Position numbers and translations under genes: made by a program. The notes beneath the pieces are model-generated. The model made no database searches, was not told where the DNA came from, and worked only from the letters and a program-made list of their open reading frames with translations. This document shows, piece after piece, positions 16,722 through 38,505 of a DNA stretch of 64,000 bases. The stretch spans positions 1,632,001 through 1,696,000 of the forward strand of contig CAWIAD010000001.1 in the NCBI GenBank assembly GCA_963833985.1, given 5' to 3'. The DNA is from an uncultured Planctomycetaceae bacterium. GTDB lineage: Bacteria > Planctomycetota > Planctomycetia > Isosphaerales > Isosphaeraceae. Each line of letters begins with the position of its first letter. Position 1 is the stretch's first letter.

Positions 16722-18558
16722 ATGGTCGACATGGAAAACCGCCCCAAAGAAGACATGCCACCGGGGTTGACCGTGGAACAACTCCGAACGCTCAATGCAC
16801 ACTGGCGCGAAGAAGCGCAGCACCTGATGCAGCAGAACCAGGACCTCATGCGGCAGATCTCCGAGGAACGGAGCAACAGCGAACAACGGTGCGCTGCGCG
16901 GCTCGCGGCGCTGAACCTGATGGAGGACGCGGTCGCCGCGCGCCACTCCGAGCAACGTGAGAGCCTCCAGCGGCTCCATGCCGAGTCGGAGCTGCGTCGT
17001 TCCGTCGAGAAGTACCGGACCCTGTTCGAGTCCATCGATGAAGGTTTCTTTATACTTCAGAAAGTCGAGTCGAGCTCGGAAGGATTGCCCGATTTCCTGA
17101 TTGCGGAAGCCAATCCGGCATTCGCTGCGCACATAGGCATCAAACACGTGGCCGGCATGACCATGCGGCAGGCCTTCGCGGGCGAGCCGGAAGACTGGTA
17201 CCTCACATTCGGCACCATTCTCGATTCCGGCCGGGCCGTGCGTTTCGAGCGCGAGCTGGTTTCGCGGTCCCGGATCGTGGAGCTCTATGCGTTCCGGCTT
17301 GAACACGAAAACCAGCAGCAGGTTGCCGTGCTCTGCCGCGATGTCTCGGAACGCAAGGCCGCCGAGCAGGAACTGCGCGATGCCGACCGACGCAAGGATG
17401 AATTCCTGGCCACCCTGGCGCACGAGCTGCGCAACCCGCTGGCGCCCATCTCCAACTGCTTGCAGCTCCTGCGCACCATGGCCGGCTTCGACGCTGACGC
17501 GCTGGAGTTTTGCGAGATGATGCAACGCCAGGTGGACCACATGGTCCGGCTGGTGGATGATCTCATGGAAGTATCGCGGATCACGCGCGGGATGATCGAG
17601 CTGCGGCCGGATCAGACCGATCTGGGAACCATCTTGCGGGGAGCCGTGGAGCAGAGCGGCCCGGTGATCGAAAGCTTCGGGCACGAGCTGATCATCTCCC
17701 TTCCCGAAGATCCGCTGCCGATCTTCGGAGACGTGATCCGGCTCGGGCAGGTGTTCGCCAACCTGCTGAACAACGCCGCCAGGTACACCGACCAGAGCGG
17801 ACGCATCTGGCTCTCCGCGGGGCAGGAGGGGAACGAGGCGGTGGTCACGGTGCGTGATACGGGCATCGGCATCGAGCCCGCGATGCTCCCCGCCATCTTC
17901 GGGCTCTTCGCACAGGCCGACACCTCCCGGACCCGGTCCCAGAGCGGCCTGGGCATCGGCCTGACACTGGCGAAGCGGCTGGTGGAGATGCACGCCGGTA
18001 CGATCTCGGCCCGGAGTGAGGGGCTTGGGCAGGGAAGCGAGTTCATCGTGCGGCTTCCCCTCGCGGAGGTGCCCGCGCCTGTGCCGGGCGAGTCCGGAAA
18101 CGGTGAGCCGGGAAGCGATCTTGTCCTGCGGCGCGTGCTGGTGGTGGATGACAATGCCGACTCGGCCGACAGCCTGGGAATGCTGCTCAGATCACTCGGC
18201 ACGGAGGTGAGAACTGTTTACGACGGCCCGCTGGCGCGTAGAGGTCGTCCAGGATTACCGCCCGGACGCGGTCTTCCTCGATATCGGCATGCCGGGTATG
18301 GACGGCCTGGAAGTGGCCCGCCGGATTCGCCGGTACCCGGGGCTGGAAGGCGTACTGCTCGTGGCTTTGACCGGCTGGGGACAGCCCACCGATCGCGAAC
18401 TCACCCGCGCCGCGGGGTTCGACCATCACCTGGTGAAACCGGCGCAGCCGCACATCTTACGAAGACTGCTCGCGGAGACGCAGGACGACAGGATGGCGGG
18501 TGCCGCTTCCCCCCCCCCGTTCCTGATGCCTCCTCGCGGGCACTTGCTTTCGAGCTAG
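16722..18558 (+). CDS. PAS hybrid histidine kinase/response regulator, frameshift at ~18237 in the receiver domain
   Basis: FLATLAHELRNPL, NLLNNAARYT, DTGIGI, GLGIGL; VLVVDDN then, in the next frame, FLDIGMPGMDG...HLVKP. Confidence 0.88.
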
Positions 18559-18638
18559 AAAAAAGCGCTGGCCGCCAGTAGAGTCATGTTTAAGGATTGC
18601 GGGGGTATTGCAGCCACCAAGGAGAAACGCAAACGATC

Positions 18639-22177: not shown

Positions 22178-24376
22178 TCAGGGCTGCGGCTGCCCGAAAC
22201 GGCCGGAGCGGCGGAAGCGGCGGGTCTGCGGAAAATCGGCGCCGGCCGGCTGCGGTGGCTGGGGCGGTACGAAACGGGGGTCGCGCTGAGGCCGCATGAC
22301 GCCGGGGCCAAAGACACCGGGCGGCCCGCCCATGCGCCCGCCACCCGGAAGCTGAGGCCGCATGGGCTCGAACTGTCCAGGTCGCTGCATCCGCCCGGGA
22401 AACCTTGGGTTCTGGTCCAGCAGGCGGCCGTCCAGAGCGTCCATCACCTCGGGGACATGCAGGTCAATTGCTTCGTCATTCTCCGCGGGGTTCCCGCCGG
22501 TTGCGTCGGAACCGGCCGCCGGCGTGTCGCTGCAATGCTCGGCCAGGTAACGGGTCCACGAGCTGCGGTGGTCAGCCACCGGGGTCAGTACGCGTCCCAC
22601 TGGCGTTTCCTCCACGGTCCGGGGCGGAGCGCCCTGGACCAGCCGCAGGTACTCGATCACGGCCCGTGCCTGCCGCTCCTGATGGAGGCCCTGAAGCACC
22701 TGGGCCTTCAACGCCAGCAGCCGGAAACGCAGCTCGGTTGAACCGGCGCGGGCCGAGAGCATGTCGAGATCGGTCTCGGCGGTTGCGTAATCGCCTCGCA
22801 GGTAATCGAAAAAGAGCCGGTACTCGTCTTCGGACGGATCGGCCGGGTTCTCCTTGAGGGCGCTGCTGTGTGCGGCGGGCGGCTCGTCGAGGAGCGCCCG
22901 GGCGACCTTGCCAAGGCGGCGCAACGAGAACGTCACGGGAGACTGAGGAAGGATCTCGCCGGACGCGGGCAGGAGACTGACCCTGTCGACGGGTTGTCCG
23001 TCCAGCAAGGGCTGCGGGACGGTTTGCAGGAGCGACTGCGCGGCGCCCGCGAGCGTTGTCAGCCATTCCTGGCGCGCGGTGCTGTCAGGGGCCAGCAGTT
23101 TGACGTGGGTAGAGCCCAGGTCGCAGAGCAAGGGTGGAGACATTCCCCCGGCCGTTTCCACACGGATCGCCAGCGTCTGGCCGTCGGGATGCAGAGCGAG
23201 CGTGCCGAGCGGCAGGCCGGCGACCAGGGGGTGGAACTTCTTGATGACCGCCTGCCGGCGGATATTGCCGTAGCCGATGACCGGAGTTGGCCCGTCCAGG
23301 TCAGAGGCGAAGGCACAGAACTCCTGGTCACGGTCAAAATCGACGGAGAATCGCTTTGGTCCGGCCGTCGCCGTGGTGGGCGGCTCCAGGTCGATCATGC
23401 CCCAGCCCGCGGGGTTCCCCGGTTGCCGTGGGTTGCGCGCCTGCAACGGCCCGCGAGGTGTGTTTCTTGGCCCGGCATCGTCGCTCAGGCTCATGGCCCG
23501 GATGGTCGCGCCGGAATCCACGAGGATGCGGAGGATCTCGAATCCGGAGTTTCGCCCGTGGAGCCGCCTGGCGGCGACCAGGATCGATTGACCATCCTGG
23601 CTCCAGGCCGCGGGCTCCGTCATGGCGGTGAGCTCGGCCAGCGAGCGGGCTGCCGAGAAATCGTGGCCCACAATCTGGAGACTCTGAGTGGCGACGGCGG
23701 CTCGAAAGGTGCGGACGAATGCCAGCCGTGTGCTATCCGGAGACCATGACGGCAGGCTGGCCCCCTCGAGCGTCTTCAGAACCCGACCCTGCTCGGGAAG
23801 CACGATCAGGAGGGCCGCCGACCCGCCTGGGCGCGGAATCGCCAGGTAACGGCCATCGGGGCTCCACGATGCCCGCAGTTCGCTGAAGGCGGCCACCTGG
23901 TCGCGGTGCAGCACGGTTTCGGGAAGCGTGCCGATCACGCGATGCTCTTCCAGCGTCTGTTGCAGTACCAGTTCGACCTCGCCTCGTACGAGTCCCTCGC
24001 GCGATCTCGCGAAGCGGGGAACGAACCGGGCGTAGAACAGGCTGTGCCCCTCAGGGCCCCAGACCGGCGCGGAAAGCGGCTCGGCGGAATCGGCGATCAG
24101 GACCGAGCTTCCTGAGCCTTTTTCGGTGGCCCAGATACGGTACCGGCGAGCGGCTGCGGACCCTTCAGCGCGCTGGACTGGAATTTCGTAAGGTGAAATC
24201 GGTTCCGCCCGCGGCTCGAAGAGCCATCCGTCGCGGTGCGCAGGAGGCTCCGCGGTTTCAACGAGTGTGTAGGCCAGCCACTGACCATCCGGAGACCAGG
24301 AGACGGGCGACTGCACGCAGGCCCCGGCCAGCGTGGTGGCCAGCAATCGGAACAGGCTCAAGAGAACAGGTTGCAA
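22178..24376 (-). CDS. TolB-like (WSPDG repeat) putative lipoprotein
   Basis: Repeated WSPDG/WGPEG/WSQDG; lipobox-like LAGAC after a TTG start with GGAG upstream. Confidence 0.7.
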   Translation of the reverse strand: MQPVLLSLFRLLATTLAGACVQSPVSWSPDGQWLAYTLVETAEPPAHRDGWLFEPRAEPISPYEIPVQRAEGSAAARRYRIWATEKGSGSSVLIADSAEPLSAPVWGPEGHSLFYARFVPRFARSREGLVRGEVELVLQQTLEEHRVIGTLPETVLHRDQVAAFSELRASWSPDGRYLAIPRPGGSAALLIVLPEQGRVLKTLEGASLPSWSPDSTRLAFVRTFRAAVATQSLQIVGHDFSAARSLAELTAMTEPAAWSQDGQSILVAARRLHGRNSGFEILRILVDSGATIRAMSLSDDAGPRNTPRGPLQARNPRQPGNPAGWGMIDLEPPTTATAGPKRFSVDFDRDQEFCAFASDLDGPTPVIGYGNIRRQAVIKKFHPLVAGLPLGTLALHPDGQTLAIRVETAGGMSPPLLCDLGSTHVKLLAPDSTARQEWLTTLAGAAQSLLQTVPQPLLDGQPVDRVSLLPASGEILPQSPVTFSLRRLGKVARALLDEPPAAHSSALKENPADPSEDEYRLFFDYLRGDYATAETDLDMLSARAGSTELRFRLLALKAQVLQGLHQERQARAVIEYLRLVQGAPPRTVEETPVGRVLTPVADHRSSWTRYLAEHCSDTPAAGSDATGGNPAENDEAIDLHVPEVMDALDGRLLDQNPRFPGRMQRPGQFEPMRPQLPGGGRMGGPPGVFGPGVMRPQRDPRFVPPQPPQPAGADFPQTRRFRRSGRFGQPQP

Positions 24377-24735
24377 CGTCAGGCCCTCCCCCTTGAGATT
24401 CCTTCTCGTTTCGCACTGACCAGGAACCGATCCACGCGGGCAAGTCGTCTCCGGCTGGCTGGCATTTGCCAGGACAACGGATGCGAGCGCAGCCGTCTGG
24501 AGACCGCCTGCCGGCCCGGTATCGCCTTGCGGATCGATTCTCAGTATAGTCAAGAAGCAGGCCGAGTTCCTAGCCGACCATTTTGTTCCACTGCCCCGGC
24601 TCTTGAATCGGCGCCCGGCGGTCGATTATCTTTTATAGTGAGATCGTTGTGGCGGAAGGCGGACGATTCCCGGCGACTGGCCAGGCCCTTCCGAATCAGA
24701 TCGTATGGGTTGCACGATGACGGTCGGGAGTCGCT

Positions 24736-25265
24736 ATGCGCTTTGTGTTGATTGACCGGATTCTTGATGTGCAGAGGGGCGAATCCCTGGTGGCCGTGAA
24801 GAACCTGTCGCTCGCGGAAGAATACCTGAGCGACCACTTTCCCGGGTTCCCCGTCATGCCAGGTGTCCTGATGCTCGAGGCATCACCCAGGCAGGCGCAT
24901 GGGTGATTCGCGATATGGAAGATTTCGCGCACAGCATCATCTTGCTCAAGCAGGCCAAAACCATCAAGTATGGCAGTTTCGTTGAGCCGGGGCGGCAACT
25001 GGAGCTACGCGTCAACCTGGTGGCCCATACCGACTGCGAAACGAGCTTCAAGGCCGTGGGGCTGATCGACGGCCAGGAGATGGTCAAAGGGCGCATTGCG
25101 CTGAGGCGCTTCAACTTGCGTGATCGTGATCCGGGCCTCCACCAGACGGACTCAACCATCGTCGCCGGACTTCGCGACCTCTACCAGACGCTCCGCAAGG
25201 GGTCCGTCGGTGCTCGTGCCATCAGCCGTGTGCCGGCCGCTCCGGAGGTGAAGACAACCGTCTGA
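24736..25265 (+). CDS. FabZ-like 3-hydroxyacyl-ACP dehydratase 1, frameshift at ~24883
   Basis: Manual translation from ATG 24736: MRFVLIDRI...KNLSLAEEYLSDHFPGFPVMPGVLMLEA, continuing in the 24903 ORF frame (TQAGAWVIRD...FVEPG). Confidence 0.85.
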
Positions 25266-25627
25266 GCCAGGAATGGCCGGAACCCCCAGAACCCCCGCCT
25301 GCACTCCCGCCGTCGAATGACGCCCTCCTGTACACCCTCCCAGGCCACCTACCCGGCTCAGCTTACCTGGGCCAGGCCACTTGAATCCCTCCTTATGATG
25401 TTGCAAGGATTCTATTTTTTCCGCATGATACCGGCCTGCTACAGACCGATCGCGGTCGGGCAACTTTCCAGGCTGGCTCTCGCGGTCCATCGCGCACCGG
25501 GATGAGAGACCTTTGAAGTTGGACGCTCAGTATCGCCGACGATTAAGTGAGCCGACTTGATTCTCGGCGCCCCTGCCGGTCGGTCTGGATCGGGGTTGAG
25601 CGGCAATCCCTTTTTCCTGAGGATGAC

Positions 25628-26014
25628 ATGCCAACGTACGACGAGATCTTCGAGAAAGTTCAAGCGACTCTGGTGGATGCCCTCGGCGTGGACGAGGAAG
25701 ACGTGACTCAGCAGGCGACCCTGCAAGGGGACCTGGGGGCCGAGTCGATCGACTTTCTGGACATCGTATTCCGGCTCGAGCGGAATTTCGGGATCAAGAT
25801 TCCCCGAGGCGAGCTCTTCCCTGAAAACCTCGTTGCCGACCCCGAGTGGGTGGCCGAGGGTAAGCTCACCGAGAAGGGGATCAGCGAGCTGAAGTCGCGT
25901 CTGCCGTACGCCGACCTCTCCAGATTTGCCGCAAATCCGGACGTGGAAAAGATCGGAGATCTTTACACGGTCGACATGCTTGTCCATTATGTCCAGAGCA
26001 AACTGGCTGCCTGA
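25628..26014 (+). CDS. Acyl carrier protein, enlarged (128 aa)
   Basis: DLGAESIDFLDIVFRLE phosphopantetheine-site motif; terminal TVDMLVHYV helix. Confidence 0.9.
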   Translation: MPTYDEIFEKVQATLVDALGVDEEDVTQQATLQGDLGAESIDFLDIVFRLERNFGIKIPRGELFPENLVADPEWVAEGKLTEKGISELKSRLPYADLSRFAANPDVEKIGDLYTVDMLVHYVQSKLAA

Positions 26015-26167
26015 ACCGGTTGTATGAGTCATGGCGGGCCGGATCGCCGGGCCGGAGTCACGGTCGGTTCCGCCGCGACGTGAAGCGGAGCCGATGGCCG
26101 CGGGCTCCTGGTTCGTCGACAGCCCTGGAAATCGTCGCCCTGGTCTCAAGAGGTGCTTTTTCCGACA

Positions 26168-26707
26168 ATGCGCTGGATCTGGATCGATAAATTCCTGGAG
26201 TTTCGCAGCGGCCAGTTCGCCAGGGCGATCAAGAACCTGACATTGGCTGAGGAGCACCTGCACGATCATTTTCCCGGTTACCCGGTCATGCCCGCCTCCT
26301 TGATCATCGAGGGGCTTGCGCAGACCGGGGGTATCCTGGTCGGTGAGGCTGGTGGCTTCGCGGAAAAAGTCGTGCTGGCGAAGATCCCCAGGGCGGAGTT
26401 CCTGGGGGTGGCCTGCGCAGGTGATCAGCTCATTTACGAGGTAACCCTCAAGGACCTGCGCAGCGAGGGTGCCGTGGTCGAGGCCAAGGCGTTCCTGGAA
26501 GGCGAGCTCCTGGTCGACGCGGAGATTGTCTTCGCCCATCTGGACAACTCACGCGCCAATCAGATCTTCGGTCCCAAGAATTTCGTGTTCACGCAGCAAC
26601 TCCTCGGCGTCCTCGACCTGGCGAAGGCGCAGCAGCGCACCCGCGAGGCTGACGGGCTTGCCGCCAGCAACGGGCAACCACACCAGCCAAAGCCAACTGC
26701 CTCCTAG
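26168..26707 (+). CDS. FabZ-like dehydratase 2
   Basis: MRWIWIDKF, HFPGYPVMPASLIIEGLAQ. Confidence 0.9.
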   Translation: MRWIWIDKFLEFRSGQFARAIKNLTLAEEHLHDHFPGYPVMPASLIIEGLAQTGGILVGEAGGFAEKVVLAKIPRAEFLGVACAGDQLIYEVTLKDLRSEGAVVEAKAFLEGELLVDAEIVFAHLDNSRANQIFGPKNFVFTQQLLGVLDLAKAQQRTREADGLAASNGQPHQPKPTAS

Positions 26708-26899
26708 GCTCTTGCCAGCCACACCGTTTGTTCCGCCTGGGTGAAGACCGCGAATCGGGAAAAAGTTGCGGTCCAGGTTGAGTTTGTGTCCCCGCGACGG
26801 CCGAGAGAGGTCATAATAGTGGGACAAAAGAAAAGGACGTGGGGCCTACTAACGGGATGAGGCCCAGGGTCAGATCGGTCGGAGATCGACGAGTCATTC

Positions 26900-28216
26900 A
26901 TGCTTGGTTCCCAACGCCGCGTGGTCATTACCGGTCTGGGCCTGGTCACACCGCTGGGAGATGCCCCGGACCGAGTTTGGGGTGCCCTGGTCGAGGGTCA
27001 GGGTGCGGTGCGCCCCGTCGAGGCATTTCCCGTGGAAGGGATGCCGAACCAGCTCGGGGCCGAGATTCGCCACTTTGACTTCCTGAAGACGCCCGCGCTG
27101 GCGAAGGCGAAATTCATCAAAGAACTGCGCAAGAGCCGCAAGTACATGGCCCGGGACATCCAGCTTTGCGTGGCCGCGGCGCAGCTCGCCTCCGTGGACG
27201 CCCGCCTCGACGCGGGCGGAGTGGACCCGGCCCGAGTTGGTATCGACCTTGGAGCCGGGCTCATCTCCACAGAGCTGGACGAGCTGGCACCGGCCATCGA
27301 GCACGCCACGCCGCACGGCGGATCGTTCGATTTCGGGAGCTGGGGCCGGGAATCGATCGGCATGATCGAGCCCATCTGGCTGCTCAAGTATCTCCCCAAC
27401 ATGCTGGCCTGCCACATTTCCATCCTCATGGACTGCCAGGGTCCCAGCAACACGATCACGCAGGGCGATGCCTCGTCGAACCTGGCCATCGCCGAGGCGG
27501 CGCGGATCATCGCACGCGGTAAAGCCGACGTCATGATTGCCGGCGGCGCCGACTCGAAGGTGCATCCGCTGAGCTTCGTGCGCATGGCCCTGAATCGGAC
27601 CATGTCGCCCTGGAAAGGCGAGCCGGCCGGGGCCTGCCGGCCGTTTGATACGCACCGTTGCGGTACCGTGCCCGGCGAGGGCGCGGGCATCTTGATTCTG
27701 GAAGAGCGCGAGCACGCCCTGCGCCGCGGGGCTGTCATCCACGGCGAGGTCCTGGGCGCCGGCTCCGGGTGCGATGCCGTGGCCACGGGCGGCCTCGATC
27801 CCGAAGGGAGCGGTACGGAAGTCGCCATTCTCTCCGCGCTGCGCGAAGCCGGTCTGCCGCCATCGGCCATCGGCCACGTGAACGCCCACGGCGTGGGCTC
27901 GGTGGTTGGAGATCTCGCCGAGGCCCGGGCGTTTCACCGGGTCTTCGGCGCGGCTTCTCCGCCTGTCACGGCACTCAAGGGGTATTTCGGCACGCTGGCC
28001 TCCGGCTGCGGCGCGGTGGAACTGATCGGCAGCCTGATCGGCGTCAATCGCGGCCTCATTCCGCCGGCCTTGAACTGCGACGAACCGGATCCCGCCTGCG
28101 CGCTGGACATCGTCCGCCGTGCACCGCGGCCGACACGCAACACGGTCTTCATCAACACGAACATCACGGGCAACGGCCAGGCGGCCGCCGTGGTCGTCCG
28201 TGGTCATGCTCCATAG
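26900..28216 (+). CDS. FabF-like ketosynthase homolog lacking the catalytic Cys (chain-length-factor-like)
   Basis: RRVVITGLGLVTPLG, PNM, CRPFD, GEGAG, NAHG; TAC replaced by QGD and the second His replaced (KGYFGT). Confidence 0.85.
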   Translation: MLGSQRRVVITGLGLVTPLGDAPDRVWGALVEGQGAVRPVEAFPVEGMPNQLGAEIRHFDFLKTPALAKAKFIKELRKSRKYMARDIQLCVAAAQLASVDARLDAGGVDPARVGIDLGAGLISTELDELAPAIEHATPHGGSFDFGSWGRESIGMIEPIWLLKYLPNMLACHISILMDCQGPSNTITQGDASSNLAIAEAARIIARGKADVMIAGGADSKVHPLSFVRMALNRTMSPWKGEPAGACRPFDTHRCGTVPGEGAGILILEEREHALRRGAVIHGEVLGAGSGCDAVATGGLDPEGSGTEVAILSALREAGLPPSAIGHVNAHGVGSVVGDLAEARAFHRVFGAASPPVTALKGYFGTLASGCGAVELIGSLIGVNRGLIPPALNCDEPDPACALDIVRRAPRPTRNTVFINTNITGNGQAAAVVVRGHAP

Positions 28217-28311
28217 TCCACCCGAACAACGTCAGAGCGCAGCCGCCGGGCAAGTCATGAGGCAGCCGGCGGGATGGGTATGAGTGGATCGAACCGCGAG
28301 GAATCGCCCGC

Positions 28312-29597
28312 ATGCGTCGTGTACTGGTCACGGGAATGGGTATGGTCACTCCGGTTGGCCACGACCTCGAGTCTACCTGGTCGGCAATCCAGGAGGGACA
28401 GAGCGGGGTCGGGCCGATCTCGCTCTTCGACGCGCACACGTTTCCCACTCGCATTGCGGCCGAAGTGAAAGACTTCCGGCTCGACCGCTACCGCACGGAT
28501 GCCGGCCGGTGGGCCGACCACTCGCGCAATTCCAAGTTCGCTCTCGCCGCGGCGCAGATGGCCATGAACGATTCGGGCTTGAATGACCCCAGCGCCCTGC
28601 CCGACCGCAGCCGCTTCGGCGTCTATCTCGGGGCCGGCGAGGGCCAGCAGGACTTTCCCCGCTTTGTCAAGCTCGTGCACAAGTCGACGCACGCATGCAA
28701 GGTGCGCACCTCGGAGTTCACCCGGTTGGGCCTGCACGAGCTGCACCCCATTGCCGAGGCCGAGCAGGAGCCGGGCACGCCCTCGGCCCACCTGGCCAAC
28801 GCGTTCGGCGCCAAGGGCCTGAACGCGAATTGTTTGACAGCGTGCGCAGCCAGCTCACAGGCCATCGGCGAGGCGTACGAGATGATTCGCGCTGGTTGTG
28901 CCGATGTCGTGCTCTCGGGCGGCACCCACAGCATGATCCACCCATTCGGAGTCACCGGCTTCATCCTCTTGACCGCCCTCTCCACCCACAACGACGAGCC
29001 GGCGCGGGCGAGCCGACCGTTCGACCGCGATCGCGATGGCTTCATCCTGGGAGAGGGGGCGGGGATGCTCATTCTCGAGGAGCTGGAGCACGCCAGGGCG
29101 CGGGCGCGCGCGTCTACGGGGAAATTGTGGGCTACGGGTCCACGGCCGATGCATTCCGGATCACTGACAGCCATGACGAGGGTCGAGGTGCCATCGCCTG
29201 CATCCGCGAGGCCCTGGAGGACGCCCGGATTTCTCCGGACCAGGTCGATTACATCAATGCCCACGGCACCAGTACGAAGGTGAACGATTCGATCGAGACC
29301 CTCGCCATCAAGCAGGCCTTCGGGGATGCTGCCTACCGCGTGCCGATTTCCAGCACCAAGAGCATGATGGGCCATTTGATTGCGGCTGCCGGGAGCGTCG
29401 AGGCGATTGTCTGCCTGCTGGCGATCCGTGACGGCGTCGTGCCGCCCACGGTGAATCTCGATCACCCCGACGCGGATTGCGACCTGGACTACATCCCGCA
29501 CGAGTCCCGGCGCAAGAAAGTGGATGTCGCGCTTTCAAACAGCTTTGGCTTTGGCGGGCAAAACATCACGCTGATCCTTAGACGATTCACCGATTGA
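28312..29597 (+). CDS. fabF: FabF-like beta-ketoacyl-ACP synthase, frameshift at ~29103
   Basis: LTACAAS, SRPFD, NAHGTST, KSMMGHL, NSFGFGG (Cys-His-His intact). Confidence 0.88.
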
Positions 29598-29685
29598 AAG
29601 CACTTCAGCCCACCCGGGCCGGTACGAGCTTCGCCCCCAACGACAAGTGGGCGAAACCCGAACTGGCCGCCGGGAGCCTGTGGCG

Positions 29686-30798
29686 ATGCGATCAGGAGTC
29701 CTTGCCGTGGTTGGCTTTTCCTTCGCGGTTTACCTCGTTGCGACGACCGCTGCACTGGTGATTGCATTTCTGTCGGCCTTCATGGTCTACGCCGTATTCG
29801 CGTACGGCCCCGTGATCCGGCGGATTTTTGAGCTCCGGCCGGTGCTCCTGCCCTTGCGGGTCTCCCCGCAGGACGTCGGCGAGACCGTGCGTTTCCGGAC
29901 CGAAGACGGGCTGGAGCTTTCAGGCTCCTATCTCGCTCGCAGGGCTGTGCCGCGTGCCGGGGTCCTGGTTTTCTGTCACGAATATCTGAGCGACCGATGG
30001 AGCTGCCTTCCTTATCTCGATGCCCTGCGCGACGCCGGCTACGACCTGTTCACTTTCGACTTCCGCAACCACGGCAAGAGTGCTTCCGCCGCCGACTATG
30101 CGCCGCTCCAGTGGGCCACCGAGTACGAGGTGCGCGACCTCCGCGCGGCACTGGCTTACCTGCGTGGCCGTGCCGACCATGACGAGGCCGGTTTCGGTCT
30201 CTTCGGAGTGAGCCGGGGGGGAAGCACGGCCCTCGTCGTCGGCGCCGAGGAACCGGATGTCTGGGGAGTGGTGACCGACGGCGCGTTTCCCACACGCGGC
30301 ACGATCACCGCCTACATGTACCGCTGGGCCGCCATCTTCGTGCAGAGCAAGCTGTTGCTCTCACTCTTCCCCGGCTGGCTGTATGACATGCTGGGCTGGA
30401 TCAGTCTGCGGGGCTCGCAGCGCCGGCTCAATTGCCGGTTCCCCGACATCGAGACGGCTGCCCGGCGGCTTTCTCCGCGGCCCTGGCTGGCAATCCACGG
30501 CGCCCAGGACGTGTACATTGGCCCCGAGATCGCGCGTGCTCTCTTCGAGCATGCCCGTGAGCCCAAGGAGTTGTGGCTCGTGCCCGCGGCCAAGCATAAC
30601 CGCTGCCGGGAGTGCGAACCGGAAGCCTACGCGGCGCGGATCACCCGCTTCCTCGAGGAGCACGCACCGCGCCGCCCCATCCATTCTGCCGTGACGAGCC
30701 TGACGCAGGTGGCGGTCTCGGTTTACTCTACCGAGCCGGTACGCTCGGTCGGTGCTGGCAGGCTCGTGGCGAGCACCGCGGCCCCGGCGACGACCTGA
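29686..30798 (+). CDS. Membrane-anchored alpha/beta hydrolase
   Basis: N-terminal hydrophobic helix, DFRNHG.S, GVSRG, HGAQD, AKHN. Confidence 0.85.
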   Translation: MRSGVLAVVGFSFAVYLVATTAALVIAFLSAFMVYAVFAYGPVIRRIFELRPVLLPLRVSPQDVGETVRFRTEDGLELSGSYLARRAVPRAGVLVFCHEYLSDRWSCLPYLDALRDAGYDLFTFDFRNHGKSASAADYAPLQWATEYEVRDLRAALAYLRGRADHDEAGFGLFGVSRGGSTALVVGAEEPDVWGVVTDGAFPTRGTITAYMYRWAAIFVQSKLLLSLFPGWLYDMLGWISLRGSQRRLNCRFPDIETAARRLSPRPWLAIHGAQDVYIGPEIARALFEHAREPKELWLVPAAKHNRCRECEPEAYAARITRFLEEHAPRRPIHSAVTSLTQVAVSVYSTEPVRSVGAGRLVASTAAPATT

Positions 30799-30823
30799 CC
30801 GCCTCTCTACCAGGTGCAGAGCC

Positions 30824-32518
30824 ATGTTGAAAACCGTCAGCTGGGTTCTCGGGCAGCCCGTGGTCGCCCGCGCACGCCGGCTGGCGCGCCGCTTCCTCAA
30901 CGAAACACACCAGACCGCCGAGATCCAGCAGCGGCTCGTGCTCCAGCAGGTGGCCCGGAACTCCGGCAGCCAGTTCGGCCGCGATCATCACTTCGCCGCG
31001 ATCCGCACGGTGCAAGACTTCCAGCGGCAGGTGCCCATCAGCGGCTACGAGCGCCACGAGCCGTATATCGACCGCGTCCGCCAGGGCGATACCGAGGCGC
31101 TCTTCGCGGCGGGCACGAAAGTGCTGATGTTCGCCATGACCTCGGGCACGACCAGCCGTCCCAAGACGATCCCGGTCACCCGGCAAGCACTGGAGAACTA
31201 CCGGGAAGGCTGGACCATCTGGGGCATCCAGGCCTTCGATGCTCACCGGGAGATCCTCCGTTGGGGATTGCGCCCGATCCTCCAGATCGCCAGCGACTGG
31301 AAGGACAGCTTCACCCCCGCCGGCATTCCCTGCGGCGCGATCACCGGGCTGACCGCGTCCATGCAGAACCCGATGGTTCGCAGCGTCTACTGCATGCCGG
31401 TGGCCGGCTCGCGCATCAAGGACATCGAATCGAAGTACTACGTAGCGCTGCGGTTTTCCGTTTACCGCAACCTGGGCACCATCATTGCCGCGAACCCGAG
31501 TACGGTCCTGGCCATGGTGCGGCTGGGCGACCGCGAGAAAGAGACCCTGATCCGCGACCTGCACGACGGCACCCTGTCGCCGAAATGGGACATCCCTGAG
31601 CCGATCCGCCGCGCCCTGCGGTTCCGCTCGGGCATGAAACGCAGGGCCCACGCAAGGCGGCTCGAGAGCATCGTCAAAGAAACCGGCCGGCTCCTGCCCC
31701 GAGATTACTGGCCGAACCTGGAGTTCCTGTCGAGCTGGATGGGCGGCACCATGAAGGCCTACCTCTGCGGGTTCCCCGAGATGTTCGGTGACAAGCCCGT
31801 GCGCGACGTGGGGCTGATCGCGTCCGAAGGCCGGATGACCATTCCGGTCGAGGACGGCACGCCGGCCGGCATCCTCGATATCCGCCATCATTTCTTCGAG
31901 TTCATCCCGGAAGATCAGGCGGCGAGCGAGACGCCAGAGACCGTCGCGGCCGTCGACTTGGTCGAGGGTCAATGCTACTTCATCGTACTCACGACCGCCG
32001 GCGGGCTCTACCGCTATAACATCCACGACCTGGTGCGCTGCGTGGGCTTCCATGGCCGTGCGCCACTGCTGGAGTTCCTCAACAAGGGGTCGCACTTCTC
32101 CAGCCTCAACGGCGAGAAGCTCTCGGAGCACCAGGTCATCGCCGCGGTGGAGGAAGCCCAGCGGGTCACCGCCCAGCGGTTGCGGTCTTACCTGCTGTTG
32201 CCGGCGTGGAGCGAGCCACCCTATTACTGTTTGCTGGTCGAGAGTGCCGACCTGGCGGACCCGGCTGCTCCGGCAAAACTCGCCCAGGCCGTGGACGAGC
32301 AGTTGCGCACGCAGAACATCGAATACGCCAACCGGCGCGACACCCGCAGACTTGACCCAGTCCGCACCATCCGACTGCCAGACGGATCCTGGCTGGAATT
32401 CCAGAGGCGCCGGTTAGCGCGAAGCGGGGGAACCGTCGAACAGTATAAGCAACCGCACCTGATCCCCGACCTCGACGCGATCCACACGTTCGAGCATTGC
32501 GAACCTTCGGGCTCGTGA
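30824..32518 (+). CDS. GH3-family acyl-adenylate/amido synthetase
   Basis: TSGTTSRPKTIP, ASEG, FFEFIP, TTAGGLYRYNIHD, GEKLSE, QYKQP. Confidence 0.9.
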   Translation: MLKTVSWVLGQPVVARARRLARRFLNETHQTAEIQQRLVLQQVARNSGSQFGRDHHFAAIRTVQDFQRQVPISGYERHEPYIDRVRQGDTEALFAAGTKVLMFAMTSGTTSRPKTIPVTRQALENYREGWTIWGIQAFDAHREILRWGLRPILQIASDWKDSFTPAGIPCGAITGLTASMQNPMVRSVYCMPVAGSRIKDIESKYYVALRFSVYRNLGTIIAANPSTVLAMVRLGDREKETLIRDLHDGTLSPKWDIPEPIRRALRFRSGMKRRAHARRLESIVKETGRLLPRDYWPNLEFLSSWMGGTMKAYLCGFPEMFGDKPVRDVGLIASEGRMTIPVEDGTPAGILDIRHHFFEFIPEDQAASETPETVAAVDLVEGQCYFIVLTTAGGLYRYNIHDLVRCVGFHGRAPLLEFLNKGSHFSSLNGEKLSEHQVIAAVEEAQRVTAQRLRSYLLLPAWSEPPYYCLLVESADLADPAAPAKLAQAVDEQLRTQNIEYANRRDTRRLDPVRTIRLPDGSWLEFQRRRLARSGGTVEQYKQPHLIPDLDAIHTFEHCEPSGS

Positions 32519-36314: not shown

Positions 36315-36427
36315 GCTTTGAACGAACGGTTCAACTAATGCCGCGGCTCACGTTCACGCTGGAGTCACGTGCTGGCAAGATGCGCTCAAGGATGGAGGAT
36401 TCGCGATTGAAGATCCTGTCAAAGGTG

Positions 36428-37643
36428 ATGCCGTCGGTGCCAACCCTGGCTGGCTCGTCGCCCCGTATCCGGCGGATTGATCTGCTGGGCGTCCACGTGC
36501 CGCTCAAGAAAGTGGTCAAGCACGCCTCGCACAGCCGCAGCGACAGCGAGAACCTGGTGGTGCGGGTGGAGTTGGCCGGGGGGCAAGAGGGCTATGGCGA
36601 GGGTGTTCCTCGCAGCTACGTGACCGGCGAGACCATCGAATCCACGTTCGCCACGCTGAGCGGCCAGGACTGGGCGCGCAGGATCGGCCGCCCTGGGAAT
36701 TTCGCCGAGGTTGTGGACCGCCTGAAGACGCTGACGGTTCCTGAGAACGATGCCGATTCCCGCGGCATGGCCGGCAACGCGGCGCACTGCGCACTGGAGC
36801 TGGCGGTGCTGGACGCCTATGGACGCCACTTTGGCGAGCCCGTGGGACGCGCCGTGGAACTGGCCGATGTGCCCGGCCTGGTTTCCTTCCCCAGACCCCG
36901 GAAAGTCCGCTACGGCACGGCGATCACGGCCGATACGCGGTTTCAGGAGCTGCGCTCGGCATTCAAGTTTTATGTCTACGCTTTTGGCAACGTGAAGGCG
37001 AAGGTCGGTGTGGCGGGGCAGGATGACGTCAGGCGAGTGCGCTGGTTTCGCTGGATGCTGGGTCCGAAAGTGGACCTCGTGCTGGACGCCAACGAGGCCT
37101 GGAGCGCCGAGGAACTGCTGGAGCGGGTGCGGCCGCTGGCGCGGTACTCCATCGAGGCCATCGAGCAGCCCGTGCCGCATGCCGAGGTCCAGAAGCTCGC
37201 CGCGCTGCGACGCCGGCTCGGTGTGCCCGTCATGCTCGACGAATCGCTCTGCGGCTATCCGGACGCGGTCGCCGCGGTGCGAGAAGGCACAGCCGACCTG
37301 TTCAACGTCCGGTTGTCGAAGTGCGGAGGCATCCTTCCCAGTCTGCGGATCATCGGCCTGGCCCGGCGACTCCGGGCTGGGCGTGCAGCTTGGCTGCCAT
37401 CCCGGAGAGACGGCCATCCTCTCCGCCGCGGGCCGGCAAGTGGCCAGCCGCGTCAGCGGCCTGCGCTGGGTCGAAGGTTCGTATGACCGGCACATCCTAC
37501 GCAGCAACGTCACCCGCGAAGACCTGACCTTCGGCTACGGAGGCTATGCCTCGCCGCTCACGGGTCCCGGTCTTGGCGTCTCCATAGACACCCCGGCGCT
37601 GGAGCGGATGGTCACCAAGCGACATGAGATGATCTATGACTGA
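36428..37643 (+). CDS. Enolase-superfamily (MLE/dipeptide epimerase-like) enzyme, frameshift at ~37368; start uncertain
   Basis: GYGEG.PR.YVTGE, KAK, DANE, IEQP, LDES, SKCGG, C-terminal GPGLGV. Confidence 0.82.
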
Positions 37644-38505
37644 AGCATGCATGGAATCGACATGGCAGTCCCGGACCTTTCAGGCCTCCGACGGCTACCC
37701 GTTCCACGTGGCGGTCTGGCCCCCGACGATTCCAGCTTGTGGAAGGATCGTGGTCCTCCATGGAGTGCAGAGCCACTCCGGCTGGTACCATTCCCTGGGC
37801 CGCAGCTTGGCGGCCGCGGGCTACCATGCCTCGTTTCCCGACCGCCGCGGTTCCGGACCGAACCAGCGCGATCGCGGCCATGCGCCGGGCGGAAGGCGGC
37901 TGGTCCAGGACATCACCGAGTGGCTCCACTCTCTGCGTGCCGAGCAGGCCGAGGTACCGATCGTGCTGGCGGGCATCAGCTGGGGGGCGAAGCTGGCGCT
38001 CATCGTGGCGGCCCGCCATCCCGAGCTGGTCGACGGCATGGCTCTGGTTTGCCCGGGGCTGACGCCGCGGGTGGGCGTCTCCACGCGAGAGAAGTTTCAG
38101 ATCGCCTGGTCGCTGCTGACCAATCGCCGCAAGCTGTTTCCGATTCCACTGTCCGACCCCGCCCTGTTCACGGCCAATCCCGATGCCCAGGCATTCATCG
38201 CGTCCGACCCTCTGAGCTTGCGCCAGGGCACCGCGGGGCTGCTTGCGGCCAGCTTCTTCATTGACAGGCAGCTCAGGCGGGTGACCCGGCGGGTGTCACA
38301 GCCGGCACTGCTGATGCTGGCCGGGCACGACCGCATCGTCGATAACGCACGCACGCTGGAGTACTTTCAGAAACTGGCAGCACACGACCGGCAGGTCATC
38401 GAGTATCCCGAGGGCCACCACACCCTGGAATTCGACCCTGATCCCACGCGCTACGCGCGCGACCTCATCTCGTGGGCAACCGAGCACGTCCCGCGACGCC
38501 GGTAA
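37636..38505 (+). CDS. Alpha/beta hydrolase (lysophospholipase-like)
   Basis: HGVQSH, DRRGSG, GISWG, D and H catalytic positions. Confidence 0.88.
   Translation: MTEACMESTWQSRTFQASDGYPFHVAVWPPTIPACGRIVVLHGVQSHSGWYHSLGRSLAAAGYHASFPDRRGSGPNQRDRGHAPGGRRLVQDITEWLHSLRAEQAEVPIVLAGISWGAKLALIVAARHPELVDGMALVCPGLTPRVGVSTREKFQIAWSLLTNRRKLFPIPLSDPALFTANPDAQAFIASDPLSLRQGTAGLLAASFFIDRQLRRVTRRVSQPALLMLAGHDRIVDNARTLEYFQKLAAHDRQVIEYPEGHHTLEFDPDPTRYARDLISWATEHVPRRR

Follow-up and report, generated by a model that had tools for sequence, protein, structure and literature searches.

Gene content and order of the cluster

We analyzed a 64,000-nucleotide stretch of DNA (the window) from an uncultured Planctomycetaceae bacterium (assembly GCA_963833985.1, contig CAWIAD010000001.1, positions 1,632,001 to 1,696,000 of the forward strand), which carries a cluster resembling a dissociated fatty acid synthase (FAS) joined to a hydrolase and a GH3-family enzyme. 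The source genome (G000; 10.2 Mb, two contigs) has Isosphaeraceae among its close relatives that carry names. A sequence-only reading made earlier had described seven co-directional genes, in the order dehydratase, acyl carrier protein (ACP), dehydratase, inactive ketosynthase (KS), active KS, alpha/beta hydrolase (ABH), and GH3. The coordinates confirm this order and the spacing of exactly 25 bp between the hydrolase stop and the GH3 ATG, and the catalytic residues support the active/inactive KS pair with its dedicated ACP. That reading had missed an enolase-superfamily (enolase-type) enzyme, a second hydrolase (Hyd4), and the planctomycete GH3 paralog OlsH. The plus-strand run in fact extends beyond GH3 up to position 38505, and the cluster has two tiers, a core (two dehydratases, the ACP, and the KS pair) and a tail (GH3, the hydrolases, and the enolase-type enzyme):

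24736-25265, + strand: core, FabZ-type dehydratase 1; PF07977 on the N-terminal piece, DHFPG and LMLEA motifs, two frames
25628-26014, + strand: core, enlarged ACP of 128 aa; PF00550, GAESIDF motif
26168-26707, + strand: core, FabZ-type dehydratase 2; His and Glu motifs kept
26900-28216, + strand: core, inactive KS homolog, chain-length-factor-like; Cys replaced by Asp190, second His by Thr
28312-29597, + strand: core, active FabF-type KS; LTACAAS, NAHG, and MGHL, one base short near 29103
29707-30798, + strand: ABH, serine alpha/beta hydrolase with a hydrophobic N-terminal helix; Pfam match, Ser-Asp-His triad
30824-32518, + strand: GH3 acyl-adenylating enzyme, OlsH paralog; PF03321, PF23571, PF23572
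32862-34223, + strand: DUF1571 protein with lipobox-like LVAGC; PF07608
34505-34897, + strand: single-domain response regulator receiver; PF00072
34947-36314, + strand: NicO-like membrane protein; PF03824, weak match
36383-37643, + strand: enolase-superfamily (MLE subgroup) enzyme; PF13378, frameshift near 37375
37636-38505, + strand: Hyd4, second serine hydrolase, monoacylglycerol-lipase-like; PF12146, GISWG, HDRIV, and GHHTL

Hyd4 overlaps the enolase-type gene by 8 bp, and a GTG start was assigned to ABH from an AGGAG 8 nt upstream. Dehydratase 1 is one base short near 24883 relative to all three close relatives covering that site, and the active KS is one base short near 29103 relative to 3/4, the fourth having its own indels there; both genes align unbroken in most relatives. 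The enolase-type gene is split in G000 by a frameshift near 37375. Because the relatives are intact and other G000 genes are broken as well (olsH lies in three pieces), the three frameshifts are probably assembly errors.

Among 64 related loci with at least 7.5 kb of sequence downstream of the ACP gene, the hydrolase follows in 62 and GH3 in 59, so the gene order is not random. A promoter and terminator scan gave no excess over shuffled sequences (1 versus 1.6 and 9 versus 8.2). No ketoreductase (KR), enoyl reductase, or FabD was found within the G000 cluster locus. The sequence-only reading was therefore right about the locus on this point, but a FabG-type KR lies between dehydratase 1 and the ACP gene in many other families, and the absence is thus a local loss. 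An ortholog of the cluster KR was not found in G000, where the best match is canonical fabG; an ordinary plsX-fabD-fabG-acpP-fabF locus is present (labels from translations). Two genomes of other classes carry similar runs, namely, dehydratase-KR-ACP-dehydratase-inactive KS-active KS-ABH-GH3-DUF1571-DUF1571-MLE-Hyd4, all on one strand, in G034 and ABH-GH3-GH3-MLE-Hyd4 in G056, which suggests that the window retains an ancestral operon minus the KR.

Core enzymes

According to the alignment, the 128-aa ACP has approximately 50 extra residues ahead of its last helix. In its predicted model (pLDDT 77.8), which adopts an ACP fold, these residues form three additional helices, the extra helices being placed at residues 82 to 112. 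An intact relative of dehydratase 1 scores 94.8 to 96.6 bits with FabZ, under the cut-off. The active KS keeps LTACAAS, NAHG, and MGHL, and Cys-His-His is thus found in one KS of the pair and not in its partner. In 18 relatives of the inactive KS, the catalytic Cys position is occupied by Glu in 11 and by Asp, as in the window, in 7, and the second His is retained in just 2.

An intact ortholog of the active KS passes the fabF model TIGR03150 (510.8 bits, cut-off 493.75). A quick tree of 66 sequences, built from proteins other than the frameshifted window KS and the aryl polyene (APE) and Iga enzymes, placed the inactive KS in its own clade (SH-aLRT 99) and the active KS in a CLTACAAS clade separate from canonical FabF. 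The active KS ranks FabF structures first among its PDB matches, and both KSs are nearer to FabF than to polyketide synthase (PKS) structures. In several families, the inactive KS is encoded away from the locus, which then has the order dehydratase-(KR)-ACP-dehydratase-KS(-ABH). G000 also carries a second, intact, stand-alone KS of the active cluster type (C1:1073494-1074783; L199), 66 to 73% identical and in the same clade.

Distribution and probable essentiality of the core

The long ACP was sought in a class sample of 91 Planctomycetia genomes, including G000, with presence thresholds of our own choosing and with kin that are not independent of one another. It was found in 91/91, as a single match in 90 and as three in one, G217 of family f1, whose two extra copies (C2:1783132 and 2508298) are 54% identical. 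Across the phylum, it occurs in 39/161 genomes, and 23 of these are among the 145 outside the class.

The essential-gene figure for Planctopirus limnophila lists Plim_3124 (dehydratase), Plim_3123 (short-chain dehydrogenase/reductase [SDR]), Plim_3122 (ACP), Plim_3121 (dehydratase), and Plim_3120 (KS), with insertion indices of 0.024, 0, 0.003, 0.010, and 0.007, respectively, compared to 0.14 to 0.19 for four flanking genes, Plim_3117-3119 and 3125 (PMC10632474). Read as fractions, these indices give lengths of 167, 128, 162, and 429 aa, which fit the loci of family f4, and the 128 aa is the exact length of the window ACP. The KS gene Plim_3120 is the last of the essential set, the next gene being dispensable. 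Plim_3119 was considered as ABH since it occupies the same place as ABH in f4 loci, but at 256 aa versus 329 to 365 aa, no identity is claimed. All five KS paralogs of P. limnophila are essential, as is FabI (PMC10632474). Family f4 genomes (L156-L163, L170, L171) carry two inactive-KS paralogs, one of which adjoins canonical fabF in 3/5 pairs, and some of the five essential KS genes could be such paralogs. A search of the labels in the available essential-gene list, as opposed to the genome, found no GH3, enolase-type epimerase (COG4948), or hydrolase (COG2267, COG1073, COG0596).

Two points weigh against essentiality of the core. The P. limnophila genes were matched through order, COG label, and length, not sequence, and polarity on Plim_3120 could make the upstream genes look essential. 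Nonetheless, given the class-wide ACP and the essentiality of the matching genes, housekeeping lipid synthesis is favored over pigment formation, and the core is very probably an essential, non-pigment lipid synthase.

Probable product of the core and known counterparts

Residue-bound (omega-1)-hydroxy C26-C32 acids are reported from Telmatocola and Zavarzinella (PMC3327967), (omega-1)-hydroxy C28-C32 acids from Limnoglobus, Fimbriiglobus, and Telmatocola (PMC7397252), and (omega-1)-hydroxy C28-C35 acids from Lacipirellula (PMC6995999). In rhizobia, C26-C34 acids are made by an acpXL-fabZXL-fabF2XL-fabF1XL-adhA2XL-lpxXL cluster (PMC11901934). Both systems have a specialized ACP, a dehydratase, and two KSs in the order ACP-dehydratase-KS-KS, and both occur in organisms with (omega-1)-hydroxy acids of at least C26. 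The planctomycete locus differs in its 128-aa ACP, its two dehydratases, the frequent KR, and the GH3 tail; furthermore, rhizobial mutants are viable, whereas the planctomycete core is likely essential. The models PRK06508, PRK06501, and PRK06519, which we take to represent AcpXL, FabF1XL, and FabF2XL, were not reached (41.8 versus 83, 51.6 versus 320, and 374.7 versus 629 bits), and we therefore regard the planctomycete core as analogous to the rhizobial one. Neither lpxXL nor adhA2XL was seen among the neighbors scanned, which were a subset of all neighbors, and of four PF03279 matches in G000, none is near the locus.

The anammox Cluster I (amxACP, amxFabZ, amxFabF2/amxFabFmut) likewise combines an ACP, a FabZ, and an inactive KS upstream of an active one, with the heterodimer demonstrated in anammox and represented here by the genes alone; the Cys position is V/T there and E/D in the planctomycete inactive KS (bioRxiv 10.64898/2026.05.19.726425). 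No radical SAM or phytoene-dehydrogenase-like gene was labeled in the examined loci or lies between or beside the window core genes. For PDB entry 9s5h, presumably the anammox KS pair, the active KS gave 329.7 bits with chain 9s5h_B versus 403.9 with Bacillus subtilis FabF, and the inactive KS gave 183 and 147 versus 218. Since canonical FabFs outscore 9s5h and radical SAM and desaturase-like genes are absent from these loci, we rejected an assignment to Cluster I. Functionally, the core parallels the rhizobial very-long-chain system; in construction, it parallels the anammox KS pair; it belongs to neither.

Whereas gene content, distribution, linkage, and the catalytic residues are observed, the chemical steps proposed here and for the tail are inferred. 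In the core, the two KSs would form a heterodimer acting on the 128-aa ACP, the reductive step would fall to the cluster KR or, in the family of the window, to ordinary FabG, and both dehydratases would work on long chains. By analogy, the product is somewhat more probably than not a set of (omega-1)-hydroxy C26-C35 acids, which would probably be delivered to lipid A or to a different bound lipid of the envelope. Several observations count against this product. Gemmata obscuriglobus is reported without the (omega-1) series and with omega-hydroxy C24 instead (PMC3327967), and the available account of P. limnophila gives long-chain alcohols, diols, and 3-hydroxy C14-C20 acids in lipopolysaccharide (LPS), not (omega-1) acids (PMC3035269). 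Our literature search found no lipid table for Isosphaeraceae, and none of the labeled loci showed an LpxL-type transferase adjoining the core.

Enzymes of the tail

The Ser-Asp-His triad of ABH (S169, D268, H297) is invariant in 14 sequences, and ABH is likely a thioesterase or an acyltransferase. The GH3 protein matches PF03321 with 231.6 bits and JAR1 with an E value of 1e-25, and its nucleotide motifs TSGTTSRPK, LIASEG, and GLYRYNIHD are kept in 18 sequences. ESM Atlas returned family-level names only for GH3 and ABH, and when GH3 was compared with plasmids, the 12 matches were all distant, none exceeding 28% identity.

The closest functional counterpart is OlsH of Singulisphaera acidiphila, which joins ornithine to free C14-C18 acids and needs ATP and Mg; its partner OlsI is an alpha/beta-hydrolase O-acyltransferase that adds the O-acyl chain (PMC12493201). 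In a 2026 review, the OlsH pathway is given as known from this species only, as far as the available text extends (PMC12971839). In the OlsH-OlsG-OlsI system and in the window alike, a planctomycete GH3 that keeps its nucleotide motifs lies next to an alpha/beta hydrolase (PMC12493201), but the window GH3 is linked to a chain builder and a racemase-like enzyme, and neither hydrolase is OlsI: with the OlsI model NF052614 (cut-off 385), ABH gave no match and Hyd4 gave 28.4 bits. The window GH3 scored 109.2 bits with the OlsH model NF052613 (cut-off 620) and is 26 to 35% identical to the olsH pieces of G000, which lie at C1:431.0-432.5 kb and score 513, 319, and 90 bits. Given this score and the separate olsH, an identification of the window GH3 as OlsH was rejected. 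The tail parallels OlsH/OlsI in function, with additional steps, but is not that pathway. The true olsH locus of G000 (C1:430419-434275; L001-L003) has methyltransferase-like and hydrolase-like neighbors, and a small ACP-like open reading frame (ORF; 430419-430724) faces the end of olsH.

In the enolase-type enzyme, K216/K218, D246, E272, D297, and K324, corresponding to the KxK motif, the Asp/Glu/Asp metal ligands, and the second Lys, are invariant in 10 sequences. A pair of catalytic Lys residues and three acidic ligands for the metal are also found in the N-acyl amino acid racemases and the dipeptide epimerases of this superfamily; the window enzyme is distant from these, and its substrate is presumably a lipid. 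Dipeptide epimerases carry a DxD motif, and the window enzyme has EGSYD. Its best PDB match (124.7 bits, above dipeptide epimerases) is 2p88, which we take to be the Bacillus cereus N-succinyl-Arg/Lys racemase. It passes no NCBIfam cut-off, the best being muconate cycloisomerase (134 bits, cut-off 335). We consider the enzyme a candidate N-acyl amino acid racemase, with the reservation that the motifs and a 125-bit match are the basis for this assignment.

Hyd4 resembles monoacylglycerol lipases among PDB matches, is 24% identical to ABH, and is a candidate O-acyltransferase. The C-terminal domain of the DUF1571 protein was modeled with a LolA/LppX/RseB fold (pLDDT 74.6), and Foldseek retrieved RseB (E value, 1.6e-7), LolA (9.4e-6), and LppX (1.4e-5); the model makes this lipoprotein a candidate periplasmic lipid carrier. 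DUF1571 is present in 53/64 close loci and in the G034 operon. The receiver is also present in 53/64 close loci and, within such runs, was seen only in family f1. A NicO-like gene occurs in 17 of the 41 listed loci of at least 6 kb (38 metagenome loci and three genome regions), often directly upstream of the enolase-type gene. An OleD-like SDR, unlinked to the window cluster, has 2-alkyl-3-oxoalkanoate reductases as its best NCBIfam matches (168.1 and 159.6 bits; OleD cut-off, 580). In G000 (C1:1434575-1441170; L213), a distance of 3 kb separates this SDR from another KS gene that has an LpxL-like acyltransferase ahead of it; this arrangement is probably unrelated.

In the pathway that we propose for the tail, ABH, a membrane hydrolase, would release the chain as a free acid, and GH3, in the manner of OlsH, would adenylate it and couple it to an amino acid through an amide bond. 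The enolase-type enzyme may invert the alpha carbon of the N-acyl amino acid, Hyd4 may attach an O-acyl chain, as OlsI does, the SDR may reduce a keto group, and the LolA-fold lipoprotein may ferry the product across the periplasm.

Distribution and linkage of the tail

In the 91 genomes, we found GH3 in 65, ABH in 63 (62 plus one by blastp), the enolase-type gene in 62, Hyd4 in 62, and the SDR in 55. The enolase-type gene and Hyd4 have identical 62-genome sets, all inside the 65 with GH3. ABH presence agrees with GH3 in 85/91 genomes, and 61 of the 63 ABH genomes have GH3; the enolase-type gene and Hyd4 thus track GH3 more tightly than does the adjacent ABH. The 55 SDR genomes all fall inside the 62, and some of the seven misses had more candidates than were scored. 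A total of 26/91 genomes keep the ACP without a window-type GH3, and the tail looks dispensable.

Linkage was defined as a distance within 12 kb, with contig breaks lowering the counts. It was found for ACP-ABH in 54/63 genomes, MLE-Hyd4 in 50/62, GH3-ABH in 39/61, GH3-ACP in 36/65, and GH3-MLE in 16/62, and the enolase-type gene lies that close to the ACP in just 12/62. The expectation of the sequence-only reading that hydrolase and GH3 stay linked to the KS/ACP core thus holds for most ABH genes and for more than half of the GH3 genes, but it fails in family f4, where GH3 is unlinked from the ACP in 16/16 genomes. Outside the class, the close GH3 subfamily occurs only in G034 and G056, both among the 23/145 genomes with the long ACP. 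A more distant GH3 group, 32 to 38% identical, is found in 13 other-class genomes without the long ACP (G032, G035, G051, G052, G057, G063, G075, G090, G116, G125, G136, G138, and G142).

In the order of genome G196 (Pirellulales, going by names), the enolase-type gene occurs in 12/201 genomes. GH3 is present in 10 of these 12 loci, a type I PKS adjoins the tail in 8, a desaturase is present in 3, and ABH is present in 1; one contig was too short. The eight loci with a PKS beside the tail have no ABH, and G196 and G225 gave no ABH match genome-wide. The G196 PKS has the domains KS-AT-DH-ER-KR-ACP-TE and an adjoining acyl-AMP ligase-ACP gene; the domain scan covered this PKS, the others being labeled through 40 to 46% similarity to it. 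It is mainly because the PKS thioesterase stands where ABH is missing that we favor ABH as the releasing enzyme, which also fits the need of OlsH for a free acid. An SDR lies between GH3 and the enolase-type gene in most of these loci. The Pirellulales loci (L177, L197, and L200-L208) combine acyl-AMP ligase, reducing type I PKS, ApbA-like reductase, GH3, SDR, enolase-type enzyme, and hydrolase in an undescribed lipid cluster, with an MMPL transporter in that of G196; the ApbA-like gene has only a 41-bit match in G000.

Overall reading and alternatives

We read the locus as a second dissociated FAS with its own enlarged ACP, likely for very long envelope chains, plus a co-inherited tail that likely makes an undescribed amino-acid lipid of the cell envelope from some of them, and we give this combined reading a rough probability of 0.4. 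That the hydrolase releases the chain and GH3 amidates it, as first suggested by the sequence-only reading, remains our best guess for the tail, with an amide being the moderately probable product; that the tail draws on the chain made by the core is slightly more probable than that. Two findings speak against such a coupling. GH3 is unlinked from the ACP throughout the f4 sample, and the Pirellulales tail adjoins a PKS or a desaturase, not the core, so the tail is not tied to a window-type ACP. A more elaborate version appears rather unlikely. It holds that the essential second FAS, separate in origin from the rhizobial one, supplies membrane-spanning hydroxy acids, that most sampled genomes make an N-(very-long-chain acyl)-D-amino acid ester through GH3, a lipid-acting racemase, two serine hydrolases, and LolA-fold export, and that the tail is portable and in some Pirellulales was attached anew to a type I PKS.

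The strongest competitor, although unlikely, makes the tail an independent amino-lipid module working on ordinary free C16-C18 acids like OlsH, with ABH as an editing thioesterase of the core and proximity reflecting co-regulation only. The lack of GH3-ACP linkage in all 16 f4 genomes with both genes, the few enolase-type genes near the ACP, the Pirellulales pairings with a PKS or desaturase, and the acceptance of C14-C18 acids by OlsH (PMC12493201) would all fit. However, the whole operon in G034 and the ABH-GH3-GH3-MLE-Hyd4 run in G056 come from other classes, the close GH3 leaves the class only in these two long-ACP genomes, ABH tracks GH3 in 85/91 genomes, and where the tail has moved, it mostly adjoins another dedicated chain builder.

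Quite improbable is a nitrogen-free lipid, in which the SDR would reduce a 2-alkyl-3-oxo acid, GH3 would activate the hydroxy acid and close a lactone or ester (OleC-like), and the enolase-type enzyme would epimerize, dehydrate, or lactonize. The best matches of the SDR, its place between GH3 and the enolase-type gene in most Pirellulales loci, the muconate cycloisomerase match, and the lack of a recurring amino-acid supply gene in the labeled loci are compatible with such a product, but the SDR and enolase-type scores are far under their cut-offs (580 and 335). In addition, both hydrolases have a Ser nucleophile, unlike OleB, in which the nucleophile is Asp. The GH3 enzymes described in the available text of PMC12493201 form amides.

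A shade less probable again is a core that elongates only to 3-hydroxy C18-C20 acids for lipid A primary positions or phospholipids, and not to C26-C35. In P. limnophila, the LPS contains 3-hydroxy C20:0 at 22.5% (PMC3035269), and the essential genes include lpxABCDKL and, close to the core, the plsC-type gene Plim_3130 (PMC10632474). Such a product, however, would need neither the 50-residue ACP insert nor an inactive KS partner and would leave the very long acids without a candidate pathway among those examined.

The polyene or small secreted N-acyl amide of a highly reducing type II PKS, which was the sequence-only proposal and in which GH3 either amidates the product or loads the starter, is very improbable: the KS with an inactive partner, the paired dehydratases, the dedicated ACP, and the lack of an enoyl reductase in any examined locus recall the aryl polyene and ishigamide systems, and the anammox pair forms a KS/CLF-like heterodimer (bioRxiv 10.64898/2026.05.19.726425), but the ACP is universal (91/91) and nearly always single-copy in a housekeeping-like distribution, the core is likely essential, the active KS passes the fabF model, both KSs are nearer to FabF structures (ishigamide KS 6kxd gives only 134 bits with the inactive KS), and P. 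limnophila has an essential FabI. As 26/91 genomes have the ACP without a window-type GH3, GH3 as an obligatory starter loader was rejected. A link to stieleriacines, also raised earlier, was dropped as weak; window-type GH3 is present in 1/13 genomes of family f3, which we take to be Pirellulaceae, where stieleriacines were found.

If the preferred reading of a second FAS with a co-inherited tail is correct, the core would provide candidate genes for the source of bound (omega-1)-hydroxy C26-C35 acids in planctomycetes, and an essential class-wide synthase would be relevant to the construction of the unusual envelope of planctomycetes. The tail GH3 would be the second such activity in bacteria, OlsH being the first, and the enolase-type enzyme might be a member of its superfamily that acts on a lipid. 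At least four lipids of S. acidiphila were left unassigned (PMC12493201), and the cluster offers candidate genes for some of them. The locus is intact in this species (L094), for which a knockout method now exists, and with a tail that looks dispensable, these lipid questions are testable in a tractable organism. Our literature search, with most subscription journals outside its coverage, yielded no account of the cluster or of any bacterial GH3 linked to a PKS, and the cluster is not described in the available portions of a 2025 planctomycete metabolite review (PMC12078418), a ladderane genomics study (PMC2649909), a type II PKS catalogue (PMC10132072), or PMC4334474.

Neighboring genes and minor observations

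A Streptomyces record (NZ_CP027299.1; L196) has a type I PKS, a P450, an aminotransferase, a zinc dehydrogenase, and GH3 in a row, which constitutes a PKS-linked bacterial GH3. Within the window, a hybrid histidine kinase (16722-18581) shows an apparent frame change in its receiver domain (overlapping ORF, 18289-18558), likely an assembly indel. A PD40 beta-propeller protein (22178-24553, - strand) lies divergently ahead of the cluster, as it does in most f1 loci and in G023.

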